DNA of 36,749 nt from a virus (taxonomy: Duplodnaviria; Heunggongvirae; Uroviricota; Caudoviricetes), in the IMG/VR virus record IMGVR_UViG_2579779084_000014; one strand, 5' to 3'. The notes beneath the pieces were generated by a model. That model did no database searches. It was not told where the DNA came from and saw only the letters and a list, made by a program, of their open reading frames with translations. The translations under genes and the position numbers were made by a program. Positions 1 through 36,749 of this stretch are shown here, one piece after another (the stretch's first letter is position 1; every line of letters begins with the position of its first letter).

Positions 1-1698
1 TCAGGCGATAAGGTCACCGTATTTTTCGCGCAGGCTCGTAGCCTGTTGGGCGTCTGCGGCAAGTTCGCTGCTGTTTGTTGGTGCGCCGGTGTTGCTGTGG
101 GTGTGGTTTGCAGTGTGTGTGGCCAGCAACTGAACCAGATCCAGAATATCAATCAACAACGTCAGCAGATTAAGTCCGGATTTTTCCCGTGAGTCACCGC
201 GACCAATAAATACTGTCGGGGCTGTAAACTCCAGGCCACCGTCCGCTCGGCATGTTCTGCGGCCTCCCACGTTTTCAGTAAGGTCGTGTTCAATCGTGGA
301 TGTAGCCCCTTTGAGTTTAGTCAGCAAATCCTGCGCTACCATCTGGATATGCTCACTGGCTGCGATCGCGTAATGGCCGGTAGTAAGGTGCTCTATTTGT
401 CCTGCCATTAGCTTGCTGGTTCCCAGAACGCTGGTTATATCGTTTGCCTGTACTGTGGTTGTTCTGGTTGTTGTTGTGCGTTCCTCCTGATCGCTGTTAA
501 TGGTTCGCCGGGCTGAATGTTCTCTGATTTGCTGGTCGGTTTCTCTGTGCCAGCTTCCGTCAGCCGTGACGCGCTGAAACACTTCTGCGCGCTGTTGCTG
601 CAGCTGTTCGCCGGGCTTTACATCAGGCAGGTTATGGCCAGCGGGTAAGATTTGCCTGATAACGGGTTTGTCCGGACGTCCTTCAATGTTGGATATTTCC
701 ACGATGGTGCCTGCCGGTGGGTAGGCAAAACATCCCGCCTCACTGCCAGCCATGGGGACGGGGAGCGGTACTGCCGGGTAAACGGGCGTGTCGCTTTTAT
801 CGTTGCCGTTCTCATCAAGCAACTGCACATCGACGGCGTAGCGTGGGCGGAAACTGTCGGCCACATCGCCCAGGGTGGTGGGCTCCGTTGGCGCAATGAC
901 GCGCGCCAGCCGGGTATGTAGCGTACCGCTGGCCAGTTCCGGGAACTGTGTTTCCATTTGTCTGCGTAATGGTGATTTGGAAACAGGGTTACCCGTGGCG
1001 GTAAGGCGCTCCCATGTCAGGGTCATTTTCTCGTTGTTGAGGGCTACACGGGTAATGCGCCCGGCCGGTAGGTTCACGCCCGGTCGCACAGTTTCCATAA
1101 ACATGATGTCGATGCTGTTTCCGCCGCTTTGCCCGAGTGTGTACTGTTGCGGAATATCCGGCATTGTAATACTGGCAAATCGTGAATCAGCTGCGCTTCC
1201 CACAAATACAGAACCGTCCGGCATAGGGTGCCAGACGTAATCGCTGATACTGAATGCTCGCCCCAGTTGGCTGAGCAGTTGTGCTCCGCTGCCGCTGTGG
1301 GTGATGTAGGGAGTTGGTATACTGGCATAATCCGCATCCGGAGTGATAAAAACGATACCGCTTTGTCGCCCCAGATTATCGAGTACCCCCCGCAACGTCG
1401 GGTGTTGCATGGAGCAAGGGAAATCAAAATCCAGCACAGCAGCCGCTTCACGAATAAAAAGGCGACGTGAGCCATTTTCAGCAGGTTGATCGCGCTCAAT
1501 GTAGCCGGAGAAATAGCGCCATGCTTCACCGTCACGGCCGAGATCAATTTGTACCATTGCGCCGGCAAGGCTGTGTTCGGGTGACAGATTGTTAACAGAA
1601 ATGAAGCCACGACCGGCAGCATTCAGGGTAAGAACAAGGTTTATATCGGCAATTTCCACCCGTTCGCCATTAATCATACAGCGTTGTATTAATTTCAT
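1..1698 (-). CDS. hypothetical large protein, C-terminally truncated by the window edge (at least 565 aa)
   Basis: Long uninterrupted ORF coupled to the upstream 191-aa ORF; Thr-rich stretch TTTTRTTTV and His-rich ATHTANHTHSNTGAPT near the window edge; no family recognised. Confidence 0.55.
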   Translation of the reverse strand: MKLIQRCMINGERVEIADINLVLTLNAAGRGFISVNNLSPEHSLAGAMVQIDLGRDGEAWRYFSGYIERDQPAENGSRRLFIREAAAVLDFDFPCSMQHPTLRGVLDNLGRQSGIVFITPDADYASIPTPYITHSGSGAQLLSQLGRAFSISDYVWHPMPDGSVFVGSAADSRFASITMPDIPQQYTLGQSGGNSIDIMFMETVRPGVNLPAGRITRVALNNEKMTLTWERLTATGNPVSKSPLRRQMETQFPELASGTLHTRLARVIAPTEPTTLGDVADSFRPRYAVDVQLLDENGNDKSDTPVYPAVPLPVPMAGSEAGCFAYPPAGTIVEISNIEGRPDKPVIRQILPAGHNLPDVKPGEQLQQQRAEVFQRVTADGSWHRETDQQIREHSARRTINSDQEERTTTTRTTTVQANDITSVLGTSKLMAGQIEHLTTGHYAIAASEHIQMVAQDLLTKLKGATSTIEHDLTENVGGRRTCRADGGLEFTAPTVFIGRGDSREKSGLNLLTLLIDILDLVQLLATHTANHTHSNTGAPTNSSELAADAQQATSLREKYGDLIA

Positions 1699-2270
1699 GT
1701 TTTCCCTTCCTTTTTCACGCTCCCGATGCCAATCCAGTCCAGCCCGGAGCCAATACCATCATTGATATTTTTCCAGAAAGTTTCCTGGGTATTCATTCCT
1801 TTATCCGGCGTCAGCTCACTGCCGTTCTGTGTCTGCTGCTTTGCGATTGTTTTCTGTGAGCCACTGCGTGCCGATGCTTTTTCCGGCACGCTTAATTTTT
1901 CCCTGAGAGTAAAGGTGACCTGCCAGTGCATTTTCCCCTGTTGTTCCGTGGCATCAATGCCACCAGAAAATACCCCCTGTCGCATATTGATTGCCTTCGC
2001 GGTAGCGTTGGCAATGCGATACGTTTTTTTAGCTCCGTTACTTTCTGTTGCCTCCGCAAGCTGAAAAATACGGGTCAGAATAGCTTCATCGTTAAAGTCA
2101 ATAACCCCCGACACGCGCAGCTCTTTAGCCTTGTTTCCCTGCTGAGCGCTCGTGGTGCTGGTTGACTGTCCGGACATATCTTTATCCGGTAGTTGCATGG
2201 TGGCGCTGACGGTGATGTTGCGCAGCAGAATGGCTTCCCCGTCAAGTGCAAGGACAATCATCTGGGTCAT
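1695..2270 (-). CDS. hypothetical protein (191 aa)
   Basis: Co-directional ORF; overlaps the next ORF by 4 nt (ATGA-type coupling). Confidence 0.5.
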   Translation of the reverse strand: MTQMIVLALDGEAILLRNITVSATMQLPDKDMSGQSTSTTSAQQGNKAKELRVSGVIDFNDEAILTRIFQLAEATESNGAKKTYRIANATAKAINMRQGVFSGGIDATEQQGKMHWQVTFTLREKLSVPEKASARSGSQKTIAKQQTQNGSELTPDKGMNTQETFWKNINDGIGSGLDWIGIGSVKKEGKT

Positions 2271-2991
2271 GTAGTGCTTCCCTTAGTGATGAGAGATCAT
2301 CGCCGACGAACAGCATCACAGCTGTAAAAACCCACTCGGGGTGTGGGATGTTTTTTTGTATCAGCGCTGCGGCCTGGCTAAGGACTCCCTTGTAGCAAAA
2401 GCGCCACACCGGGCAAAATTTTTGCCGGAGTGCGGCCTGCTGATCAGCGATTTCCTGTAGAGCTTTATCTCTCGCATTCGCGAACTGACGCAGCTCTGAT
2501 GACAATGTTTCCGGTGATGTGGCAGCAGGAGTAGCTGCCTGTGCAATGGTTGCAGCCAGCGACATGCTGCGAGTGGTCTGTGTCGACAGCATTATCGGTT
2601 CCGGAAGTGATGTTACCGGTCTGGCGGGGATTTGCATTCTGCTGATGGTCAGCGAAAGTTGGCTGGAGATCATACGGGACATTCTCCCTATTTCTGGCAA
2701 CGGAAATGCACCTGAAAATTGTCTGGCAAGCGATAAAAACTCAGCAACAGACGGGGCGCAGAATAACATCGCCACGACGTCTTTTTGTGTATTTTCTGTC
2801 AGATACGGTAAAAGTGCAGACACTGCATTATCCGGACTGAGGTAGCGTCCCGATGGTGTGGTATTCCCTGTATTTACTGACCATGGGTGGAAACAAATCA
2901 TTGAACTGGTGATGTTTATGGGGTGCGGGTGCAGAATTGAGACCGCCCAGTCAGGGCGGTTATTTTTATTGTCTTTCAAATGAATATTCAT
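2242..2991 (-). CDS. hypothetical protein (249 aa; start uncertain)
   Basis: Co-directional ORF with a helical-looking C-terminal half; a GC-rich hairpin lies inside the first 20 codons, so the true start may be an internal Met. Confidence 0.4.
   Translation of the reverse strand: MNIHLKDNKNNRPDWAVSILHPHPINITSSMICFHPWSVNTGNTTPSGRYLSPDNAVSALLPYLTENTQKDVVAMLFCAPSVAEFLSLARQFSGAFPLPEIGRMSRMISSQLSLTISRMQIPARPVTSLPEPIMLSTQTTRSMSLAATIAQAATPAATSPETLSSELRQFANARDKALQEIADQQAALRQKFCPVWRFCYKGVLSQAAALIQKNIPHPEWVFTAVMLFVGDDLSSLREALHDPDDCPCT
2942..2970 (+). terminator. terminator-like hairpin ACCGCCC-AGTCA-GGGCGGT followed by TATTTTTATT (plus-strand orientation)
   Basis: 7-bp GC stem plus T-rich tail; lies inside the 5' end of the annotated 249-aa minus-strand ORF. 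Confidence 0.3.
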
Positions 2992-3023
2992 AGGTGTGTG
3001 AGATATTGCTGGTACTTGCGCGG

Positions 3024-4127
3024 TTACTGTCGGGAGGTTGTGGGTTGGTTATATAACTCCGTTGCAAAAATTATCTCTCCTTCAGTAAATGGGATATCTC
3101 CGTCAGGCTGTGTCGTAAAACTCTGTGAGACAGTCGTCCAGCTGTTTGTGTCAGCCTGCACGTCATTCTCTGTAACTGTTTCTCCTTCATGGCTTCCGCT
3201 TTTTACACTCCAGGCCAGGCAGTTATTGGGGGCGTCCGCACTGCGATAAGTGACAGCCGCCATAACTGCGACCAGATCGCCATTGCTGTTATCTACCGCA
3301 CCAAACGTAACCTGTGCCGCCTCCGGGGACGGTGAGAGCATCAGGTATCCGGCATTACTGTCAGAGGTGTTCAGTCCCGTGACGATATCTTTATCCAGCG
3401 AGTTTTTCGCACTCCCCCCGGTAAATGCGGTTACCGGGCTGTATCTGACCTCAATAGCCCCAAGCAGGGCGGGTTCCGCGCTGTTATTTTTTCCGTATGC
3501 CACTGTTCCACAGTACATATCACCCAGCATTAACGTGCCGGATGCACCTGATGAAAAAATATTGTCACCACTACCAATACTCACCTGAATTTTGTCAGTC
3601 CGGTCATCTGATACATAAAACGATGTATTTCCAGCTAATGAGCGGTTGCAGTACAGACTGGCTGAGACATAGCCGTTTTCGTTTCGCGTTGCGAAAATTT
3701 CATAGTAATAACTGGCTGCTTCATCAGGATACGGGGTTGTAAATGAATAGCCATTAATCCTGATGTGGGATGGCGAAGATGAATATTTCTTTCCCGCACT
3801 TAATGTCAGACGAAATCCCAGCTGTACAGCTGAGGCTTTTAAGTCCGGAAGTGTGCTGTACAGTGTGACATATGAGGGTGTCGTGAAAATCAGCCCCGTT
3901 CTTTCTACAGTATTTACGGCCTGAGTGCCACGACAGACGGATGTTACAGAACCGGACATATCATTGATAAGCGTGACACCGTTTTCGTTCAGTGCTGAAA
4001 TAATATTTGTTGAATAATAGTTCTCGCACAATCCCTCATTCGCCGGAATTTGTCGAAAACTTTCGAGTTTTATAATATTCAAGGTCTGCTTTCCTTTTGT
4101 GTCGGTTAATATATTTCTGAATACCAC
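3024..4127 (-). CDS. hypothetical Ser/Thr/Gly/Asn-rich protein (possible receptor-binding or tail-associated protein)
   Basis: 367-aa ORF 12 nt downstream of the Tfa-like gene; beta-rich S/T/G/N/Y composition; visibly AT-richer than the phage core. Confidence 0.5.
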   Translation of the reverse strand: MVFRNILTDTKGKQTLNIIKLESFRQIPANEGLCENYYSTNIISALNENGVTLINDMSGSVTSVCRGTQAVNTVERTGLIFTTPSYVTLYSTLPDLKASAVQLGFRLTLSAGKKYSSSPSHIRINGYSFTTPYPDEAASYYYEIFATRNENGYVSASLYCNRSLAGNTSFYVSDDRTDKIQVSIGSGDNIFSSGASGTLMLGDMYCGTVAYGKNNSAEPALLGAIEVRYSPVTAFTGGSAKNSLDKDIVTGLNTSDSNAGYLMLSPSPEAAQVTFGAVDNSNGDLVAVMAAVTYRSADAPNNCLAWSVKSGSHEGETVTENDVQADTNSWTTVSQSFTTQPDGDIPFTEGEIIFATELYNQPTTSRQ

Positions 4128-4138
4128 AAAAAGTTAGC

Positions 4139-4657
4139 TCATGGTTTTTGTGGCCATTGAATAAAATCAAAAGACTCCTTATCACTCACATGACTTAAAT
4201 TCAGAGCCTTCACCTCTTTGATATACGCCATCCACTGCATCAGGTGGGCCTTGTCGTCATCACTGATGGTGCCCAGCTCCAGCTCGGTTTTCCAGTCAGA
4301 TGTGATGTCCTTTGCTTCAGTCAGCAGATGCTGGCGTTGTTTTTCTGCCAGTTGCGAATAATCAACAGGAACCGGCAGCACTTCGCCGTCTTTGTAATAC
4401 CAACTGGCTTCAATGCCAAAACCTTCCGGCAGTTCATCAACTTCCACAATGGTGAAACCTGTCGGATAAAGACGGGACACGTCTTCCGCCATTGAATAAA
4501 TCACGCCACTTTCAGGGTGAATGCACAATTTGTATCTCTTCGTGAATTTGTCCATGGATTCATAAAAATCCTGTCCGTCTTCACTGCGGAAATACTGAAT
4601 GCCTTCACCATAAGGCATCTCTTTCGGGTAATAACGCGTGACGTTTCTGAGTTCCAT
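4139..4657 (-). CDS. tail fibre assembly protein (Tfa/U-like chaperone)
   Basis: Start at internal ATG with AAGGAG SD (MELRNVTRYYP...); directly follows the tail fibre gene; visibly AT-richer. Confidence 0.65.
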   Translation of the reverse strand: MELRNVTRYYPKEMPYGEGIQYFRSEDGQDFYESMDKFTKRYKLCIHPESGVIYSMAEDVSRLYPTGFTIVEVDELPEGFGIEASWYYKDGEVLPVPVDYSQLAEKQRQHLLTEAKDITSDWKTELELGTISDDDKAHLMQWMAYIKEVKALNLSHVSDKESFDFIQWPQKP

Positions 4658-4671
4658 TATTTTCTCCTTAA

Positions 4672-5475
4672 TTAGCCGGATACCGTGCGCCATCCGCCAT
4701 TGATATAAATCTGAGTTTGTTTGTAATACACGCCGCCGATGTTATCCGCAGAGCTCTTGCCAGTTTCCTGAACGTTAATACCTGACAAAATACAACCTGA
4801 AGGCGCGCGAAATACCCAGGAAATTTCGTTACCACCGGGATTGTGAAACACTTCGCTGGTATACCTGAAATCACGTACTGCACCAGAATCGGTGCTGCTG
4901 ATAGTGATATCGCTACTGCCATCAAACAGCACATTGTTAATCCTGCGGGCCGTCTGAAGCCGGGTTGCCGTTCCGGCGTTGCCGCTGATGTTGTTGATGG
5001 TGATATCCGAAGTCAGGGGCATGTTGTTGACCTTACGCGCTTTTGGCACACCGCTGATGTTATCCAGAAACAATTGTTTATTCGGGATGTCTGCGCCGTT
5101 ACGGTCTTTTGCCAGTCTGGCGTTTGCGTTATCCATCGCAATCCTGACCGCTTTTGGTGTAGCCGCTTCTGTTTCTGATTCACTGTTAACAGCACTGTTA
5201 AGCCGCACTACGCCTTTTTGCGTCAGCGATGCATCCGGGACTTTCTGGCCAATAAACGAGGTCAGCGCCTCAACCAGCTGGTTTTGTTTTTCCGGGTCAG
5301 GGGTGACGCCAGCCTCTTTAAGGACGTTAATCACCTCCTGCTGCAAATCACGTGTTGCTGCCTGATGATTATTCATAAATTCAGCAGTAACGATGGTTCC
5401 CTCAATTCCCTGAGTCGGGTCACCATCATGAAATAACTTATCCGGCGTATTCACCGGGGGCATTAAACTCTGCAT
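4672..5475 (-). CDS. tail fibre protein (short; conserved N-terminal attachment domain)
   Basis: 267 aa; N-terminal MPPVNTPDKLFHDGDPTQG and the SLTQKGVVRLNSAVNSESETEAATPKAV segment resemble the conserved tail-fibre collar motif of P2 H-type fibres; C-terminus ...YINGGWRTV. Confidence 0.75.
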   Translation of the reverse strand: MQSLMPPVNTPDKLFHDGDPTQGIEGTIVTAEFMNNHQAATRDLQQEVINVLKEAGVTPDPEKQNQLVEALTSFIGQKVPDASLTQKGVVRLNSAVNSESETEAATPKAVRIAMDNANARLAKDRNGADIPNKQLFLDNISGVPKARKVNNMPLTSDITINNISGNAGTATRLQTARRINNVLFDGSSDITISSTDSGAVRDFRYTSEVFHNPGGNEISWVFRAPSGCILSGINVQETGKSSADNIGGVYYKQTQIYINGGWRTVSG

Positions 5476-5521
5476 TATTTCTCCTGTAGTTATTACAAAT
5501 AAACAACATCAGACCTTTTGT

Positions 5522-6478
5522 TTAAGGCTCTGTGATAACGGCAAAGTGCAGCCCATTATGGTTAACTACTAATGGGGTACTGCTGTTATTTGCTGTTTGT
5601 AAATGTATTTTGTTAATTGTCATCGGCTCCGTGGTCTGCCTTCCCGACTGCCACTGAACGGTATTAACTGTCAGTGGTTCAATAGTTCGCCGCTCCGACA
5701 ATAGTTGCATTCTGTTAATCAGCAATGGTTCCTGACTCAGGTTTCCCGCCTGAAGCTGCGTATTGTTGATTGTGAGCGGTTTACCTTTCAGTACAGGAAT
5801 AACTGCAAAATGCATTCCGGCATTATTTATCAGCAGAGGCGCATCAGCATGACATACTGACTGAAACTGAATTCTGTTAATTGTCAGTGGTGATACTGGC
5901 TCTGGCTGAGATGTGATTTCATAAGTGAAATAACAGTCTGTAAAAGCCGGTTTAAGGTCTTTAAACGTGTTTTCTAAAATGGATTCACCAAAGGCCGTCA
6001 GCGGTTCGCCGGTTGCCGATGCGCCCGTTCTGAACCGGTAGACAGGTGTTTTTGTCCCGATAACATTGACCTGCCACGCCCAGCGGATTTCTGGTATCAG
6101 CAGGCGGTCGCCGCAGCGGTTTATCCCCACCCGGAATGGTCGCGGCTCCGTAATGGTGATGGTGTAGCCCAGACTGGCGGCAAGGCTTTTGAAGTAAGGG
6201 ATTGACAGCCCCCCCATGGCAGCCATTTTTACCAGAATGTTCTGACGCCGCTCCTGTTGTGTTGCCCCTTCACGAGGAATAACACCGTACACGCGCTCCC
6301 AGTCGGACAGCGTCATCGATGCCTGCAACGGGGTGATTTGTGTCAGAACGCGCGCCGCTGACGCCTTCACGACTTCCATGACGTCAGCCTCGGCTGTCAG
6401 TTCTGCGGAAATATATTTCCCGTTCAGGTCATAACTGACAGGTGGCAGCATGGCGCGAAATAAATCGACCATATTCAT
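5522..6478 (-). CDS. Mu gp48-like tail/baseplate protein with C-terminal peptide-repeat extension
   Basis: Start at internal ATG (MNMVDLF); gp48-like N-terminal part; the C-terminal ~130 aa carries about 7 degenerate repeats (EPLTINRIQFQS, PLLINNAGMHFAVI, PLTINNTQLQ, PLLINRMQLL, PLTVNTVQWQS, PMTINKIHLQ, PLVVNHNGLHFAVI). Confidence 0.65.
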   Translation of the reverse strand: MNMVDLFRAMLPPVSYDLNGKYISAELTAEADVMEVVKASAARVLTQITPLQASMTLSDWERVYGVIPREGATQQERRQNILVKMAAMGGLSIPYFKSLAASLGYTITITEPRPFRVGINRCGDRLLIPEIRWAWQVNVIGTKTPVYRFRTGASATGEPLTAFGESILENTFKDLKPAFTDCYFTYEITSQPEPVSPLTINRIQFQSVCHADAPLLINNAGMHFAVIPVLKGKPLTINNTQLQAGNLSQEPLLINRMQLLSERRTIEPLTVNTVQWQSGRQTTEPMTINKIHLQTANNSSTPLVVNHNGLHFAVITEP

Positions 6479-6482
6479 AAAA

Positions 6483-7562
6483 TCACCCCTCGCGCGGAAA
6501 AGGCTGAATATCAATATTTCCCGGGCGCAACCATTCCCACGTTGACGCGTTAATAATGGCTTTTACGTTGTCCGCTGGCGTAATGATTCGCCGGTCACTG
6601 ACACCGGAAATTAATGAAATCTGGGTTTCCAGTTGTGAAATTATTAATTCCTGCCCCGGCTCCAGCCGGTTCATAAAATCCGTGATAACGTCAGTTATTT
6701 GCGGTTTTATCTGCTCAACGGTCAGGCCGCTGGTTTTTACCCGGACAACGAAATCAACGGCTTTTTTCGTCGGGGCCAGCACCATCGTGTCCTTCGCTGT
6801 GACCGGGCGGACTTCCTCAATATGTGCCAGCACGGCATTAATCAGTTCCTGTGAGGGAAGGTCATTGGCTGACGTAATGGCCACATCAACCGTTCCCAGC
6901 CCACGACGCAATGACTCCACATATGCCGAGGTAACGCCATCCACTTCCAGCGCCCAGCGTTTGTAATCATATTTGTTACCGCCAGCGGGCGGCCTGCGCA
7001 GAATATCCAGATAACGCGCCAGCAGGTCGGCGTCACTTTCCCTGTCCGTTCCGCCGGTCAGGGATTTAATCGTCACCGTGCTGTTGATGCCTTCCGGCGG
7101 ACTGACCAGCGTTGCCGTCTGCGTTGTGGATGCGTTCGTATGTGCGCCCGTGGTGGTGCTTTTTGCCGTCACCTCCGCGCTGCCTTCATCACCGATGGTG
7201 CAGTCTGCGGTGGTGGCCACGCTGACACCTTCACCACGAATTTCCGCACCGGCTGGCAGCATCTTACCGGGTGTACCGGTAATCACTGCCGGGCCGGATG
7301 AGGCCGTTGCTTTTTTACGAAAAACATTGCGCGCGCGGCAGTGCAGCTCCAGATATTCAGGGTCTGCCGTGTCAGGAAACACCTGACGGAGTATCCACCC
7401 CTGATGCATATAAAGCCCGTCAGCCACGCCAGATACGGCATTTGCACGAATGCGGTAATCGCTGTCAGCGCCGGTGTCGATGGTTTCTCCCGGCAGGGCG
7501 TTAGCGATATCACGTAGCTGGCGTTCTGTGTTTTCAGCAACGCCCGGAACTGGAAACGGCAT
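6483..7562 (-). CDS. baseplate J-like protein (Mu gp47-like)
   Basis: 359 aa; baseplate J-like. Confidence 0.75.
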   Translation of the reverse strand: MPFPVPGVAENTERQLRDIANALPGETIDTGADSDYRIRANAVSGVADGLYMHQGWILRQVFPDTADPEYLELHCRARNVFRKKATASSGPAVITGTPGKMLPAGAEIRGEGVSVATTADCTIGDEGSAEVTAKSTTTGAHTNASTTQTATLVSPPEGINSTVTIKSLTGGTDRESDADLLARYLDILRRPPAGGNKYDYKRWALEVDGVTSAYVESLRRGLGTVDVAITSANDLPSQELINAVLAHIEEVRPVTAKDTMVLAPTKKAVDFVVRVKTSGLTVEQIKPQITDVITDFMNRLEPGQELIISQLETQISLISGVSDRRIITPADNVKAIINASTWEWLRPGNIDIQPFPREG

Positions 7563-7912
7563 TACATAATCCTCACAGGGTGTTCAAACGTCTGCGGTGT
7601 GCCCGCGTTATCCGTGACGGTGATTAACAGCAACAACCAGCCGCGCTGGCCCGCTTTCGTGTCAACGGTAATGGATTTTGCCCGCCCGTCATCAAGCAGG
7701 GGCTGAAGCGCCTGACTGGCATACTGCGCCGCCAGCCTGTGAACACGGGAAACGTCTTTTTCCCGCTTCAGTTCGTGCAGGCGTGACCCCAGCGACGCAT
7801 CCGCCCAGTAACTGCCAAGCGGCGTCGCCAGTCGCAGATAAACCGCGTTATGAAGTGTATAAATCCGGCGGCGTTCGTAGTCGCCGGTTGCAGGTGAAAT
7901 CGTCTGGTCCAT
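7562..7912 (-). CDS. baseplate protein (Mu gp46-like, gpW/gp25-like)
   Basis: 116 aa; position and size. Confidence 0.65.
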   Translation of the reverse strand: MDQTISPATGDYERRRIYTLHNAVYLRLATPLGSYWADASLGSRLHELKREKDVSRVHRLAAQYASQALQPLLDDGRAKSITVDTKAGQRGWLLLLITVTDNAGTPQTFEHPVRIM

Positions 7913-7952
7913 GCCGCCAGTCTGGCAGCATGGACAGGTCAGAATCAGGTGA

Positions 7953-7965
7953 GGGTGTTCAGCAC
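7953..7965. promoter_or_regulatory. dyad motif GTGCTGAACACCC (gene-strand sense), copy 1 of 3; upstream of the gp46-48/tail-fibre block
   Basis: In the 54-nt intergenic gap between the gp45-like stop and the gp46-like ATG. Confidence 0.35.
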
Positions 7966-8619
7966 TTAATTAACCGGCGTGTCAGACATGCCGTGTGGGG
8001 TCGGGTGTTTGTGCGTTCCGATTTTAATGCCATTAATGGTGACGTCAACGGAGGTAATCACACCACCCACATGGTTGATGTTGCCTTCAAAGGTGGCGGC
8101 ATATTTCTTGCCCCCACTGATGGCCATGCCACCACTGCCGGTGATTTTACCTTCCACTGTCAGCTTATCGCTGGCCGTCAGTAACGGTGTCGTGAATGCG
8201 GCGTTCTCCTCTGCCTCAACCTCATAGCGTTTGCATTTCACCCGGTAAACGTCACATTCGGTTTCAACAATCCGCCCGCGCTTCAGTACGATTTTCGCGC
8301 CTTCATCGGTATACAGGGCCACCTCGCCGGGTTTCAGTTCCGTCAGGCGATATGCGCCGTGCTCTGTGGCCACGATGACGGTATGGGAGGTATTACCGTT
8401 CAGCGGAACGGCAATACCCATAGAGCCGGGCGGCGGGGATGTGGTGAGGCCGTAATGCTGAAAATACTCCGCACCGTCCAGCTGCTCGCCTGCCAGCCCG
8501 TTCAGCTGGAGAAGCTGTACTTTGGTCGAACTGTCCACCGTACCGGTCACCACCCTGAATGCCTGGCGAACGGTGGCCAGTGCCTGCTGTATGCGCTGAT
8601 TAACCTTGTCCCACATCAT
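7966..8619 (-). CDS. baseplate spike/assembly protein (Mu gp45-like, gpV-like)
   Basis: 217 aa; gpV-like OB-fold plus beta-rich C-terminus pattern. Confidence 0.7.
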   Translation of the reverse strand: MMWDKVNQRIQQALATVRQAFRVVTGTVDSSTKVQLLQLNGLAGEQLDGAEYFQHYGLTTSPPPGSMGIAVPLNGNTSHTVIVATEHGAYRLTELKPGEVALYTDEGAKIVLKRGRIVETECDVYRVKCKRYEVEAEENAAFTTPLLTASDKLTVEGKITGSGGMAISGGKKYAATFEGNINHVGGVITSVDVTINGIKIGTHKHPTPHGMSDTPVN

Positions 8620-9827
8620 TTCTCCCAGACCTTAACAATGGCGACCTCTTTTTTCTGTTTGCCCCTGCGGTGATGGCGTTTCTTCTCACGCGGGAAGGCG
8701 TCAGGTATCCACACGCCGTCCTCCTTAAAGCGAAGCCGGGTTGTCTGCCCGTTCCGGCCTCCGCTGAACTCACGCCCCATCAGGAAAAAGATGGCATCAA
8801 TGCCGTGGAGTTCGCTGACAATCCGCACACGCTGGCCGGGCTGCCACAGGACACCGTCCGCCGTGCGATGGCCTGCAACCAGTGCAACGATATCCAGCCC
8901 CGACAGACGGGCATCACTCATCATTTTTTTTGCGCGCCAGTTCACCTGCTCCATGTTACTGGTGTCGCCCTGGGTGATTATCTGCGGGCGGTAATAATCC
9001 ACGGTGGGGTCGGTGGCCACGGCTTTCATGTTATGAATGCCTGTCTGACCACCACCTGCATTACCGCTGCCCTGCCCGGATAATGTGCGCACGCTGCCGT
9101 CCTCGTTCCAGATGTCCAGTGGCACCACGGCTACCTGTTTCTTGCTGTCTGCGCGGCGGGCGTGGCTCTGAGCCAGTACTGTCAGTTCGGAGAAACAGCC
9201 GTTAATGGACCTGGTATCGTCCAGCTCCATCACGTTGTTCCCGGTACCGTCCAGCTTCAGAATCAGCGTGTCCACCGGCGTGGTGGTGTAGTCAGGGCCA
9301 CCCACAACCAGCGTACCGTCAGGCTCAAACCACGGCCATAAGCCGCGACCGGCGGCAGCTTTAGCCAGTGCATCCCACGCACGCATCCCCGGCTCTATAA
9401 CGACCTTGTCATTACGTGACACACCAGACGCCTGAATACGGATGCGCTGTATCCCCAGTGGTCTGACTATCCTGTCGATGACCTCGTCCAGTGTCAGCTG
9501 ATTGGCGCTGAACACCGGCGCGGCACAGTCCACCAGAATGGCGGCATCATCACGCCCGGACAGGGTCAGCGCGCAGCTCTGACGGGATACACTGCGGCGC
9601 ACGCTGTCCACGCGACCACTAAGGACCGTCTCATCTCCCACCTGCAAACGGACTGGCACACCCCGGACGATATCCGCCGGGAACACCTTTTCAGGCAGTC
9701 CCAGCTGAAGCTGCCACCCGTCGGCTGCTTTCAGGAAATCGCTGTCAATACGATAACTGCTCCAGTCAGAATGCGATCTTCCGGCAATGACCAGGCTGAT
9801 TTTGTCGTCGTTATTTTGCATAGGCAT
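8616..9827 (-). CDS. baseplate hub / tail protein P (late control D-like, Mu gp44-like)
   Basis: 403 aa; Mu P-like, follows the N gene. Confidence 0.75.
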   Translation of the reverse strand: MPMQNNDDKISLVIAGRSHSDWSSYRIDSDFLKAADGWQLQLGLPEKVFPADIVRGVPVRLQVGDETVLSGRVDSVRRSVSRQSCALTLSGRDDAAILVDCAAPVFSANQLTLDEVIDRIVRPLGIQRIRIQASGVSRNDKVVIEPGMRAWDALAKAAAGRGLWPWFEPDGTLVVGGPDYTTTPVDTLILKLDGTGNNVMELDDTRSINGCFSELTVLAQSHARRADSKKQVAVVPLDIWNEDGSVRTLSGQGSGNAGGGQTGIHNMKAVATDPTVDYYRPQIITQGDTSNMEQVNWRAKKMMSDARLSGLDIVALVAGHRTADGVLWQPGQRVRIVSELHGIDAIFFLMGREFSGGRNGQTTRLRFKEDGVWIPDAFPREKKRHHRRGKQKKEVAIVKVWEK

Positions 9828-34706: not shown

Positions 34707-36749
34707 TTAACGGTTGTTTGTGCCGTTTTTCTTTAAATTGCGCTCGCGTTCAGATGCGAATAAATAAAGTTCTTCTTTTTCCTTTTTCTCCGGGCGCTCC
34801 AGACCAAATCCAAAATTAAACTCAGATTTCTGCGTAATAGCCGGGGTAAGCTCGCGTTTAGCCTCTTCGATTTTCTGCGTGGCCCGTGCAATGCGGCCTC
34901 TGACGCGTTTCTCCAGTTTTTGCTCGATAACTGGTTTAGCGAAGGCATCAACCTTATTGCCGTTCCAGATGGCATCGCAGATATAAGAGCCATCAGCCCG
35001 ACGGACAATGACACTGTTTGCGTCATGAATATCGTAACTGACCCTGACTTCATTCCCGTGCTCTGCGGCCAGTTCATACGAGTAATAAATATTGTTGAAT
35101 AACTGAATTTCCCCGCGAAATGTTTTGCGCGTCACTTCCGGCCTGAACATTTCATGCAGTTCTTCCTGCGACAGAAAATCAATTTCAACATTCTGCTCTT
35201 TTATCAGTTTCCGGCGATACGCTGCCGGGCTGTAATATTCGCCATCCTCTTTGCGGGGAAGGCTGCTGTGTGGCCGGTTGTTATAGCGTCTGACCTCCAG
35301 CTCTATGGCGGCCATCAGTTGCTCAAAGGTGGGGATTTCATCCCTCGCCTTAACCTGCCGTTTTGTCAGTTCTTTCCCTTTGTGGGTGGCCTTAATGGCC
35401 GACTGCATAATCCGTTGCTGCATCATTACGGTTTCCTTGTCTGCATCCTTTGCGCAGTACGTCTGGAAACTCAGTGCCACGTCTTTGGGTATTCCTTTGT
35501 TTGCCCGTTCTATTACCCCGCGCCCCTGCGGGTTACCCGGTATCCCCGTGTGATGCTCCACACCCAGCCGGGGCAGAATCCCGGTAATATCGGCATCAAG
35601 CACCCGGTTTTTTTCGCCGCCCCCGTTATCGGAATAATAAATCAGCGGTATCCCGTGCTGTGCCATGCCGTAACGCAACGCATCAGCAACGGCTATCACG
35701 TTTTCCGACAGGGACAGTGACCAGCCCACAACAAAGCGCTGCCCCGCATCCATAACCAGCGTCACTTCTGGCCGGAAAATATTGCCGGTCAGGGGGTTAA
35801 ACGCGGTCATTTTCATACAGTGACCATCCCCGACCCATACCGCATTAACCGGTAATGATGTCCACTCGCGCCGCACAAAGGGATTGAGCGAACGCCAGGC
35901 TGAACCTGTGGAGCGGAAACGCTCCTTAACAATCACCGGGACGCTGCTTAACACTCGTCTTACTGCGTGAACTGAAGGCAGTGCCGCCAGCATTCCCGCA
36001 TCATTCGCGTGTTTCTCATGCCACCAGGCTGAAAACTCGCGATAAGCGTATTCAACGGTCGGGCGCTTCCATGAGCGATAGAACATAAAGAAATCGCTCA
36101 GCCACCAGACCTGCTCCCACGGAGTTCCCTTATGATGACCGGGAGCCAGTAACGCCAGTAACTGATTGGCATCACCGCGCGCCATCACCCAGCTGGAGTA
36201 CCAGCTATCCAGGCTGCCGGTGCTGACACCGGTTCGCTTTCCCTGACGTGCATTTGCAGTATTCGCTGCTTCGATAATGCGGTCAGGTAACGCCCCCATG
36301 CGCACACCATCAACGATGTGCTTTAACGCGGCCTTCCTGGTCATTCCGGCGTATTCACGCAGTTTATGCACTTCAGTAGCCAGCAATATCCGCGCATCAG
36401 CAATGGCCTTTTGCTTGTCGGTCAGTGCCTGGACTTCGCGTAATGCCAGTTCCGGGCATTTGACCATCACTTCCAGTTCATCGCGAACGGCGACGTTTTT
36501 AACTGCCTTCTGCTCAACCACGGCGGGCAGTTGTGCATCTTCCAGGACCTGATGAGTCAGGCGCTTACGTAAAACTTTCTGCGCTTCAGCGGGCAGGCTG
36601 TCGATGTGATACTCGAATGCTTTTGTGCCTTCACGCTTGCGCTTCCATTCCGGGTGCGTCTCTGTGATCCGATTGAGCGTCCATCGCACCCCCTGAACTG
36701 TACCGGGCAAACGAGGAAGACCGGCCAGCTCATTGGCTGAATAAAACAT
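34707..36749 (-). CDS. A: Mu-type DDE transposase (MuA-like); ORF reaches the window edge so the true start may lie beyond 36749
   Basis: 680 aa. N-terminus (ANELAGLPRLPGT...) resembles the MuA N-terminus; catalytic-core-like motifs VWVGDGH and YYSDNGGG; sits directly upstream of a MuB-like gene as in Mu. Confidence 0.85.
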   Translation of the reverse strand: MFYSANELAGLPRLPGTVQGVRWTLNRITETHPEWKRKREGTKAFEYHIDSLPAEAQKVLRKRLTHQVLEDAQLPAVVEQKAVKNVAVRDELEVMVKCPELALREVQALTDKQKAIADARILLATEVHKLREYAGMTRKAALKHIVDGVRMGALPDRIIEAANTANARQGKRTGVSTGSLDSWYSSWVMARGDANQLLALLAPGHHKGTPWEQVWWLSDFFMFYRSWKRPTVEYAYREFSAWWHEKHANDAGMLAALPSVHAVRRVLSSVPVIVKERFRSTGSAWRSLNPFVRREWTSLPVNAVWVGDGHCMKMTAFNPLTGNIFRPEVTLVMDAGQRFVVGWSLSLSENVIAVADALRYGMAQHGIPLIYYSDNGGGEKNRVLDADITGILPRLGVEHHTGIPGNPQGRGVIERANKGIPKDVALSFQTYCAKDADKETVMMQQRIMQSAIKATHKGKELTKRQVKARDEIPTFEQLMAAIELEVRRYNNRPHSSLPRKEDGEYYSPAAYRRKLIKEQNVEIDFLSQEELHEMFRPEVTRKTFRGEIQLFNNIYYSYELAAEHGNEVRVSYDIHDANSVIVRRADGSYICDAIWNGNKVDAFAKPVIEQKLEKRVRGRIARATQKIEEAKRELTPAITQKSEFNFGFGLERPEKKEKEELYLFASERERNLKKNGTNNR

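Follow-up and report, generated by a model that had tools for sequence, protein, structure and literature searches.

In Haemophilus phages HP1 and HP2 (Peduoviridae, Hpunavirus), three genes with overlapping junctions, orf33, orf34 and orf35, come last in the tail operon, following the fibre and tail-fibre assembly (Tfa) genes. Further counterparts of the trio occur in Cronobacter phage ESSI-2, Salmonella phages SI7 and SW5, Yersinia phage vB_YenM_324 and Aeromonas phage phiO18P, and the three genes belong to the conserved core of the HP1-type phages, which have genomes of about 30 kb. Separate gpD and gpV genes are absent from these phages, and the baseplate hub and spike would form one protein. 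Vibrio phage XM1, whose hub and spike are separate proteins, was found not to be of the HP1 type. A literature search on HP1 orf33-35 yielded nothing useful. Described proteins to which such a hub-spike can be likened are VgrG, T4 gp27-gp5, the Pvc8 (PVC) and Afp8 fusions, and the Mu pair gp44 and gp45.

The second system that is relevant here is the right arm of phage Mu, with its S/U and S'/U' fibre genes, the invertase gene gin and the com/mom genes. The locus that we describe shares with it a slot located after the fibre and Tfa genes that is variable among relatives and affects host range.

The locus occupies the first 4127 positions of a 36,749-nucleotide stretch of caudovirus DNA, referred to below as the window, which carries a Mu-like phage and for which a nucleotide search of isolated phages gave no match. 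We conclude, with a probability of about 0.8, that it represents the junction of two different Escherichia coli myovirus prophages rather than cargo carried by the Mu-like one. Its four genes are already known phage tail parts belonging to catalogued families.

An HP1-type gene trio

The initial annotation described four co-directional ORFs, and their coordinates on the minus strand (1-1698, 1695-2270, 2242-2991 and 3024-4127) bear this out, as they do the 4-nt overlap between the ORFs of 191 and 565 aa. The largest ORF had been thought to continue beyond the window, but the plus strand begins with tca, a TGA stop at positions 3 to 1, and in over 100 blocks of the collection gene calls give the identical 565-aa protein as complete. 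Nor does the view hold that none of the proteins can be placed in a known family: phage families are catalogued for all four in PHROGs and, for the 191-aa protein, also in Pfam.

The 565-aa protein (1..1698) matches phrog_2258, 'baseplate protein', over its full length (1-565; E 6e-234), and tblastn aligns it with HP2 orf35 at 42.5% identity and with 100% of the ESSI-2 and SI7 counterparts at 45-47%. The 191-aa protein (1695..2270), a homolog of HP1 orf34 ('baseplate complex protein'), matches Pfam PF25759 HP1_ORF34 with 179.8 bits against a cutoff of 27 (E 5e-53) and HP2 orf34 with 39% identity (E 9e-39), and the domain is present in 75 of 75 clusters of its homologs. Similarity is lower for the 249-aa protein (2242..2991), which is 23% identical to HP2 orf33 over the full length (E 1e-17) and matches phrog_1677 (E 7e-40) and phrog_31292 (E 1e-74); its family comprises 72 representatives, its gene position is that of its counterpart in HP2 and ESSI-2, and the orf33 and orf34 homologs overlap by 29 nt in the window and likewise in ESSI-2. 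On sequence comparison, the three genes are thus syntenic homologs of HP1/HP2 orf33, orf34 and orf35, with matching order, size and overlapping junctions. The E. coli version differs from HP1/HP2 in that an extra fibre-like gene and a 352-aa gene are inserted upstream.

The 565-aa protein is predicted to be a fused baseplate hub and membrane-piercing spike of the VgrG-like kind, with a hub, an OB-fold spike domain, a beta-helix and an HxH apex. Residues 1 to about 250 have the gp27/gp44-type hub fold, resembling T4 gp27 and Mu gp44. A putative OB-fold domain follows at about 263-350 and then a putative beta-helix, both assigned from sub-threshold sequence matches, among them a profile match to the T4 gp5 beta-helix (E 0.005), and from a low-confidence part of the monomer model (pLDDT below 50 for residues 353-451), such that the beta-helix part is not reliably modelled. 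Both histidines of H532-x-H534 are invariant in 28 sequences. Searched as a single sequence against solved structures, the protein yielded Pvc8 only (E 0.94). It differs from VgrG-type hub-spikes in sequence similarity, which falls below the family thresholds, in carrying no lysozyme or effector domain, in about 30 predicted-helical residues that follow the HxH motif, and in its trimeric part, which is not confidently modelled.

For the two smaller proteins, conservation and gene position suggest that orf34 may be a co-translated baseplate partner and that orf33 is a putative conserved tail-module protein of the HP1 type. The 191-aa protein, alone or as a profile, matched no solved structure by sequence, and the 249-aa profile matched no PDB sequence. 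A correspondence of orf34 to the N-terminus of Mu gp43, the tube initiator, was rejected, hhalign finding no relation.

At all the other loci examined, the trio is part of an HP1-like prophage; around the exact 565-aa protein the genes run TMP, DUF2590, J, I, fibres, 352, 249, 191 and 565 aa, followed by Hok and a host tRNA or serS site. At those of the other loci where an intact prophage lies upstream of the identical protein, the preceding genes are an HP1-type tail operon (DUF2586 sheath, DUF2590, J, I, fibre and Tfa). In the window this operon is absent; the trio comes instead after a Mu-like tail operon, with Mu-type gp43 to gp48, and this difference in upstream genes supports a foreign origin of the trio. 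The Mu-like phage already encodes gp43, the hub gp44 (8616-9827, minus strand; GpP-like, Gp44-like and NMB1110 domains) and the central spike gp45 (7966-8619, minus strand; Pfam Phage_Mu_Gp45), and a further hub-spike of the HP1 type at 1-1698 is therefore redundant for it.

The lectin-like gene and the Mu-like right end

The fourth ORF does exist at 367 aa, as first reported, when read from a GTG at 4127, but the likeliest start is a TTG at 4082, which yields a 352-aa protein (3024..4082, minus strand). This start is preceded by an AAGGA Shine-Dalgarno sequence, and 352 aa is the length called in all relatives. The product of the longer ORF matches phrog_8291 (E 3e-223), while Pfam and NCBIfam family searches with the 352-aa protein gave no match. 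Its structural model is confident and shows a two-domain ConA-like lectin/CBM-type beta-sandwich with a jelly-roll fold. The fold relatives are lectins and glucanases of the ConA-like type, CBM4/CBM22 domains and uncharacterised 'virion structural proteins' of phages AchV4, JS26, Kokobel1 and JC01, from all of which it differs in sharing only 8-16% sequence identity; neither catalytic residues nor a ligand could be assigned.

The gene occurs in Mu-like and HP1-like prophages and in others besides; members of its family fill the fibre-distal slot of lambdoid and Raoultella prophages. From the modelled fold, the protein is probably a virion-borne accessory receptor-binding protein. The earlier idea of a host-range or adsorption module is accordingly plausible for this one gene, with its lectin/CBM-like all-beta fold and its variable slot after the fibres, but the four-gene block is not one undescribed system. 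The family itself is small, fast-diverging and E. coli-restricted, and it is a candidate host-range determinant.

Directly upstream of the 352-aa gene, on the same strand, lies the Tfa gene of the Mu-like phage (4139..4657; 172 aa, Pfam Caudo_TAP, E 5.5e-19), preceded by the gene for its short tail fibre (4672..5475; 267 aa, Pfam Phage_fiber_2). A 184-aa Tfa ORF from an upstream ATG was discarded, since it is not on record and the called gene is the 172-aa form. The last 72 aa of the short fibre are 65% identical to the tip of the 566-aa fibre of the HP1-like prophage. The exact 172-aa Tfa occurs in 620 blocks, and the ten places shown are all Mu-like, with a 351- or 366-aa gene and then host DNA.

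The gene order of related Mu-like prophages closes with a 351-aa homolog of the 352-aa gene, and the right end of the transposon lies about 105 bp beyond it. That end reads '...CGCGAAGTTACA' and is followed by varied host DNA; 12 Mu-like relatives stop just after the 351-aa gene, at different host sites, and the terminal '...CAGAAAAAAWCGCGAAGTTACA' with host DNA was found about 105 bp after the gene in 10 of 10 relatives. Allowing up to three mismatches, the right-end motif has zero matches in the window and at the end of the source contig. The block had been assigned as a whole to the Mu right arm; given where these relatives end, only the 352-aa gene belongs there. Homology to standard baseplate parts, or a Mu end lying before these genes, had been named at the outset as outcomes that would tell against an undescribed module, and for three of the four genes this is largely what emerged.

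The reported lack of a G-segment, gin or mom equivalent was confirmed, with no Pfam match to a recombinase, reverse transcriptase or mom in the four proteins. An inversion resembling that of the G-segment was rejected in the absence of inverted repeats, none longer than about 25 nt being present in 1-8000. The locus thus differs from the Mu right arm in having no invertase, inverted repeats, alternative fibre set or mom; the slot of the G-segment holds one co-directional lectin-like gene, and in strain C5 a Stf-N fibre with DUF4376.

Crossover within the lectin-like gene

Per-site comparison with an HP1-like (L001) and a Mu-like (L002) locus, together with SNP tables of nine HP1-like loci, demonstrated that the window changes from Mu-like to HP1-like sequence within the 352-aa gene, between 3634 and 3849. 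The crossover interval (3635..3848) is identical to the Mu-like and HP1-like gene copies alike; above it the SNPs are of the Mu type and below it the sequence is of the HP1 type, and the gene is consequently chimeric here. The window is identical to the Mu-like copy over 3635-4200 and about 83% identical over 3106-3500, and it is 99.7% identical to the HP1-like copy over 1-4082, with a SNP cluster at 4056-4071. A near-identical copy of the 352-aa gene is present in the HP1-like prophage, and Mu-like and HP1-like sequence may have been joined through it.

The window matches the end of contig JJMB01000049 at 100% identity. This contig stops 297 bp beyond window position 1 and has an overlap of 4.1 kb with its neighbour JJMB01000048 of the same assembly; the latter starts at window position 3835 and runs on as far as hok and pgsA. 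JJMB01000049 is the only contig with a record of the chimeric 352-aa protein, and a search of 5,426 complete E. coli genomes gave no instance of the junction. Two SNPs in the last 297 bp of this contig fit a natural allele (L011-type) and not JJMB01000048, and a distinct second copy of the flank of the block may therefore exist in the strain. Placement of the contig break, at +297, on a hok repeat boundary was rejected, since the multi-copy part of hok begins no earlier than +671.

A junction present in a single contig, which ends so soon and overlaps its neighbour so extensively, argues for an assembly chimera or a strain-specific recombination and not for Mu cargo. Of these, we lean, at little better than even odds, towards an assembly chimera formed through the repeat of the 352-aa gene. 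A real junction, to which we accord somewhat less than an even chance, would have arisen by RecA-type recombination between the two copies of about 1 kb, for example as an inversion between oppositely oriented prophages, and the two gene copies in strain 47258 are in fact oppositely oriented and 1.9 Mb apart. The Mu-like prophage would then have lost its right end and abut the tail end of the HP1-like one, both being crippled, with the identities of the genes unchanged. An identity tract of 214 bp exact and about 450 bp near-exact sequence across the crossover would suit such an event, and the two contigs have the private SNPs 3356 and 3549 in common and show no difference over 3,835 bp, which is what one locus would give. 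However, one locus should give one contig and not two overlapping ones that differ at +102 and +184, and no other genome carries the junction.

It is very improbable that the window records a functional hybrid Mu-like phage which captured HP1 orf33-35 and the 352-aa gene as late-operon cargo, with a Mu right end beyond the contig end and, possibly, a changed host range or a second choice of hub and spike. The four ORFs are intact and run in the direction of the late operon, and the far boundary is out of view because the contig ends first; yet the block is followed by 297 bp of flank from the HP1 prophage and not by a Mu end, the Mu-like phage has its own gp44 and gp45, about 3 kb of extra DNA is without precedent in the 12 relatives or the complete genomes, and the sequence switches by homologous crossover within a gene and not by insertion. 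Still harder to credit is anti-phage defence or DNA-modification cargo in place of mom. Only the placement at a prophage end, a frequent site of morons, speaks for it, but homologs or folds of structural proteins were found for all the genes, and the trio belongs to the core of the HP1-type phages. PADLOC gave no real match for the four proteins, the only two matches being chance-level ones to Cas6 (E 0.04) on the 249-aa protein, and Pfam and NCBIfam revealed no enzyme domains in them; the suggestion of accessory defence or modification cargo was not substantiated.

A repeat module and the meaning of the junction

Within the Mu-like tail operon, the gp48-type baseplate wedge protein (5522..6514, minus strand; Pfam Phage_Mu_Gp48, residues 21-199) carries C-terminal 'PLTINxxQLQ' repeats, and DNA repeats D2, D5 and D10 lie within its gene at 5593-5891. 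Aligned with the C-terminus of a 285-aa protein encoded ahead of the 352-aa gene in the HP1-like prophage, this extension shows 39% identity (E 4e-14), while in a Mu-like prophage lacking the 351-aa gene gp48 has 190 aa and no extension. The 257-aa anchor of the lambdoid context was compared with the 285-aa protein of the HP1-like one for a common repeat module, and none is shared. Two positive contexts and one negative connect the 352-aa protein with the repeat; the lambdoid context lacks the repeat. The 352-aa protein might dock on this module, namely on gp48 in Mu-like phages and on the 285-aa collar-fibre protein in HP1-like phages. Very tentatively, and we consider it rather unlikely, the two could constitute a portable auxiliary receptor-binding device exchanged among Mu-like, HP1-like and lambdoid E. 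coli prophages and acting as a recombination hot spot. If so, the window may record one recombination event between prophages at the shared sequence of the device.

The main value of these results is corrective, in that a block taken for possibly undescribed cargo proves to consist of a second prophage's ordinary genes for hub, spike and partner, lying beside a Mu-like prophage where a draft contig ends. When prophage windows are taken from draft assemblies, two elements that share a host-range gene can become fused through it. For the HP1-type phages, the hub and spike would be a single VgrG-like protein encoded after the fibre genes, which annotation pipelines still record as 'hypothetical'.

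Normal contexts of the four genes

Four co-directional ORFs occur on the minus strand at the low-coordinate end of the window, as described in the initial annotation, and they encode proteins of 565 aa (1-1698), 191 aa (1695-2270), 249 aa (2242-2991) and, when read from a GTG codon, 367 aa (3024-4127). The described overlap of the 191-aa ORF with the 565-aa ORF, 4 nt in length, was confirmed. The 565-aa ORF, earlier considered to run past the window, is complete, the opening 'tca' of the window being a TGA stop codon at 3..1, and the identical protein is called at full length in more than 100 blocks of the collection. For the fourth ORF, the most likely start is not the GTG but a TTG codon at 4082, located behind an AAGGA ribosome-binding site, which yields a protein of 352 aa, and this is the version called in all relatives.

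Although the proteins had originally been left without a family, all four match catalogued ones. The 565-aa protein matches phrog_2258, 'baseplate protein', end to end (E 6e-234), the 191-aa protein matches phrog_1398 and Pfam PF25759, 'HP1 ORF34 baseplate complex protein' (179.8 bits for PF25759; cutoff 27), the 249-aa protein falls into phrog_1677 and phrog_31292, and the 367-aa form matches phrog_8291 (E 3e-223). Searching with tblastn yielded 75 isolated-phage records matching the 565-aa protein, every one at less than 60% identity, including Haemophilus HP2 (orf35), Cronobacter ESSI-2, Salmonella SI7/SW5, Yersinia vB_YenM_324, Aeromonas phiO18P and phages of Pasteurella and Vibrio. The tail operons of HP2 and ESSI-2 end with fibre, Tfa, orf33, orf34 and orf35, with sizes and overlaps as in the window trio, and pairwise comparisons revealed homology of the 249-aa protein to orf33 over its full length (E 1e-17) and of the 191-aa protein to orf34 (E 9e-39). 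On the basis of the family matches, the shared gene order and the pairwise homologies, therefore, the trio is the terminal module conserved among Peduoviridae of the HP1 type.

A megablast search of 5,426 complete E. coli genomes matched window 1-4082 with identities reaching 99.7%, and in those matches the block constitutes the end of an HP1-like prophage. The gene order is DUF2586 sheath, TMP, DUF2590, J, I, a 566-aa fibre, Tfa and a 285-aa collar-fibre protein, followed by the 352-, 249-, 191- and 565-aa genes and then by Hok/Gef and a tRNA-Leu/Cys/Gly-pgsA site. The exact 565-aa protein occurs in this kind of context every time, at several integration sites. A deletion remnant of an HP1-like prophage (GCA_017738915.1, 7100-11698) has lost all its remaining tail genes and carries an intact 565-aa gene, separated from the integrase gene by four small genes, together with hok.

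Elsewhere, the window belongs to a transposable, Mu-like prophage encoding MuA, a MuB-like AAA protein, gp43, gp44, gp45, gp46, gp47 and gp48, and the phage already encodes its own hub and spike. Among the complete E. coli genomes, closely related Mu-like prophages align with the window only down to 3106. In 12 of these relatives the final gene is homologous to the fourth ORF and encodes 351/366 aa, and about 105 bp past it lies a conserved terminus, '...CGCGAAGTTACA', beyond which there is unrelated host DNA from another site in each genome. This terminus is missing from the window and from its source contig. In strain JNE21-009 (NZ_AP041814.1, 4404-5922) the Mu-like right end abuts the end of a DNA-circularization gene belonging to a second Mu-type tail cluster that is oriented differently, an arrangement that looks like insertion of the Mu-like prophage within another myovirus prophage or immediately next to one.

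A proposed hub-spike module

Two mutually consistent profile matches, both sub-threshold, were obtained for the 565-aa protein, to the VgrG/gp5 OB fold (residues 312-345) and to the T4 gp5 C-terminal beta-helix (residues 416-502), and its H532-x-H534 motif is invariant among 28 homologs. HxH motifs coordinate iron at the spike apex in P2 gpV, phi92 gp138 and Mu gp45, and the gp45 encoded in the window contains 'HKH'. Separate gpD and gpV genes are absent between the tape-measure gene and DUF2590/J/I in HP1-type prophages, and we take orf35 to be, in all likelihood, the protein in which these phages combine hub and spike. The translationally coupled orf34 product is a 'baseplate complex protein' according to Pfam; the 191-aa protein gave no sequence match in the PDB and no relation to Mu gp43 was found. 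Conservation of orf33 extends over 72 representative clusters, and searches with it gave no informative match.

Domain searches of the block revealed neither a recombinase nor a reverse transcriptase, in agreement with the initial annotation, and no Mom domain, and no notable inverted repeat, such as S'/U' copies, occurs within 1-8000. The suggestion of a defence or modification cargo gained no support, as no signal for either was found. Terminator-like hairpins are in excess in 1-5600 (20 versus 6.1 +/- 2.2 in shuffles), the majority lying within coding sequence, and one, on the plus strand at 2941-2961, runs antisense to the 249-aa gene at its start.

A lectin-like gene at the end of the Mu-like tail module

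The 352-aa gene is the single gene of the block that belongs on the Mu-like right arm. Its family is small, with 25 clusters at 90% identity, almost all from E. coli, and divergence extends down to 40% identity. The structure model is confident and all-beta (pLDDT 88.5). Members in other prophages likewise occupy the distal position in the tail module: in a lambdoid prophage the gene follows one for a 257-aa Stf-N-terminal protein, and in a Raoultella myovirus prophage one for a 280-aa anchor.

The gp48-type wedge protein (5522-6514) is extended at its C-terminus by about 125 aa of 'PLTINxxQLQ'-like repeats (about 5593-5891), and this extension resembles the C-terminus of the HP1-like 285-aa protein whose gene precedes the 352-aa gene (39% identity, E 4e-14). 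The Mu-like prophage of strain C5 lacks the 351-aa gene and has a plain gp48 of 190 aa, with an Stf-N fibre and DUF4376 in the same slot. Fold and co-occurrence suggest that the 352-aa protein may be an accessory carbohydrate-binding receptor-binding protein that would dock on the 'PLTINxxQLQ' repeat module. In several relatives RefSeq lists the gp48 gene as a truncated YmfQ pseudogene.

The Mu-like fibre (4672-5475) is just 267 aa long, and its 72 C-terminal residues share 65% identity with the tip of the 566-aa HP1-like fibre (4474-6174 in its prophage locus), while the Tfa proteins of the two prophages are 28% identical; host-range modules common to both prophage types therefore extend beyond the 352-aa gene.

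The junction at the contig end

Site-by-site comparison with both types of copy located the junction. The window is identical to the Mu-like copy over 3635-4200 and about 83% identical over 3106-3500, whereas it is nearly identical to the HP1-like copies over 1-3848, differs from them at 3849, 3885 and 4056-4071, and is unrelated above 4083. The parent thus switches between 3634 and 3849, within the shared 352-aa gene.

The final 14 kb of JJMB01000049, a contig of draft assembly GCA_000627885.1 that terminates 297 bp past window position 1, match the window at 100% identity. A second contig of this assembly, JJMB01000048, starts at window position 3835, just inside the crossover interval, and is 100% identical to 1-3835 before continuing into hok, tRNAs and pgsA. 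The two have 4,132 bp of overlapping sequence, with private SNPs at 3356 and 3549 in common. They differ at +102 and +184 past the stop codon, where JJMB01000049 (14083-14379 in our extracted locus) carries the allele of an HP1-like prophage type with a different integration site (GCA_000168095.1), and it ends exactly where that type and the JJMB01000048 type diverge further. The source strain may carry a second copy of the HP1-like prophage end; the flank of the block is not a general repeat.

We favour the reading that the junction arose from an assembler walking through a repeat, with a probability of about 0.55; the chimeric 352-aa protein is recorded in JJMB01000049 only and the junction in none of the 5,426 complete E. 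coli genomes. Real recombination between two oppositely oriented copies of the shared gene is a serious possibility, if short of an even chance. Under either reading, assembly or recombination, the three downstream genes (249, 191 and 565 aa) are not Mu cargo. The window opens, at position 1, precisely with the stop codon that ends the 565-aa gene and closes, at position 36749, precisely with the start codon (ATG) of the gene for the 680-aa MuA protein, and therefore the repressor, ner and the left end lie outside; evidently the window boundaries follow gene coordinates and not those of the element.

The apparent four-gene unit is a product of a junction lying where a single draft contig ends, and the earlier view of a single unit of the Mu right arm gives way to one in which the 249-, 191- and 565-aa genes come from another prophage and are known baseplate genes of HP1 type. 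The remaining gene encodes a lectin-like tail accessory, catalogued and uncharacterised. The finding is an ordinary one.
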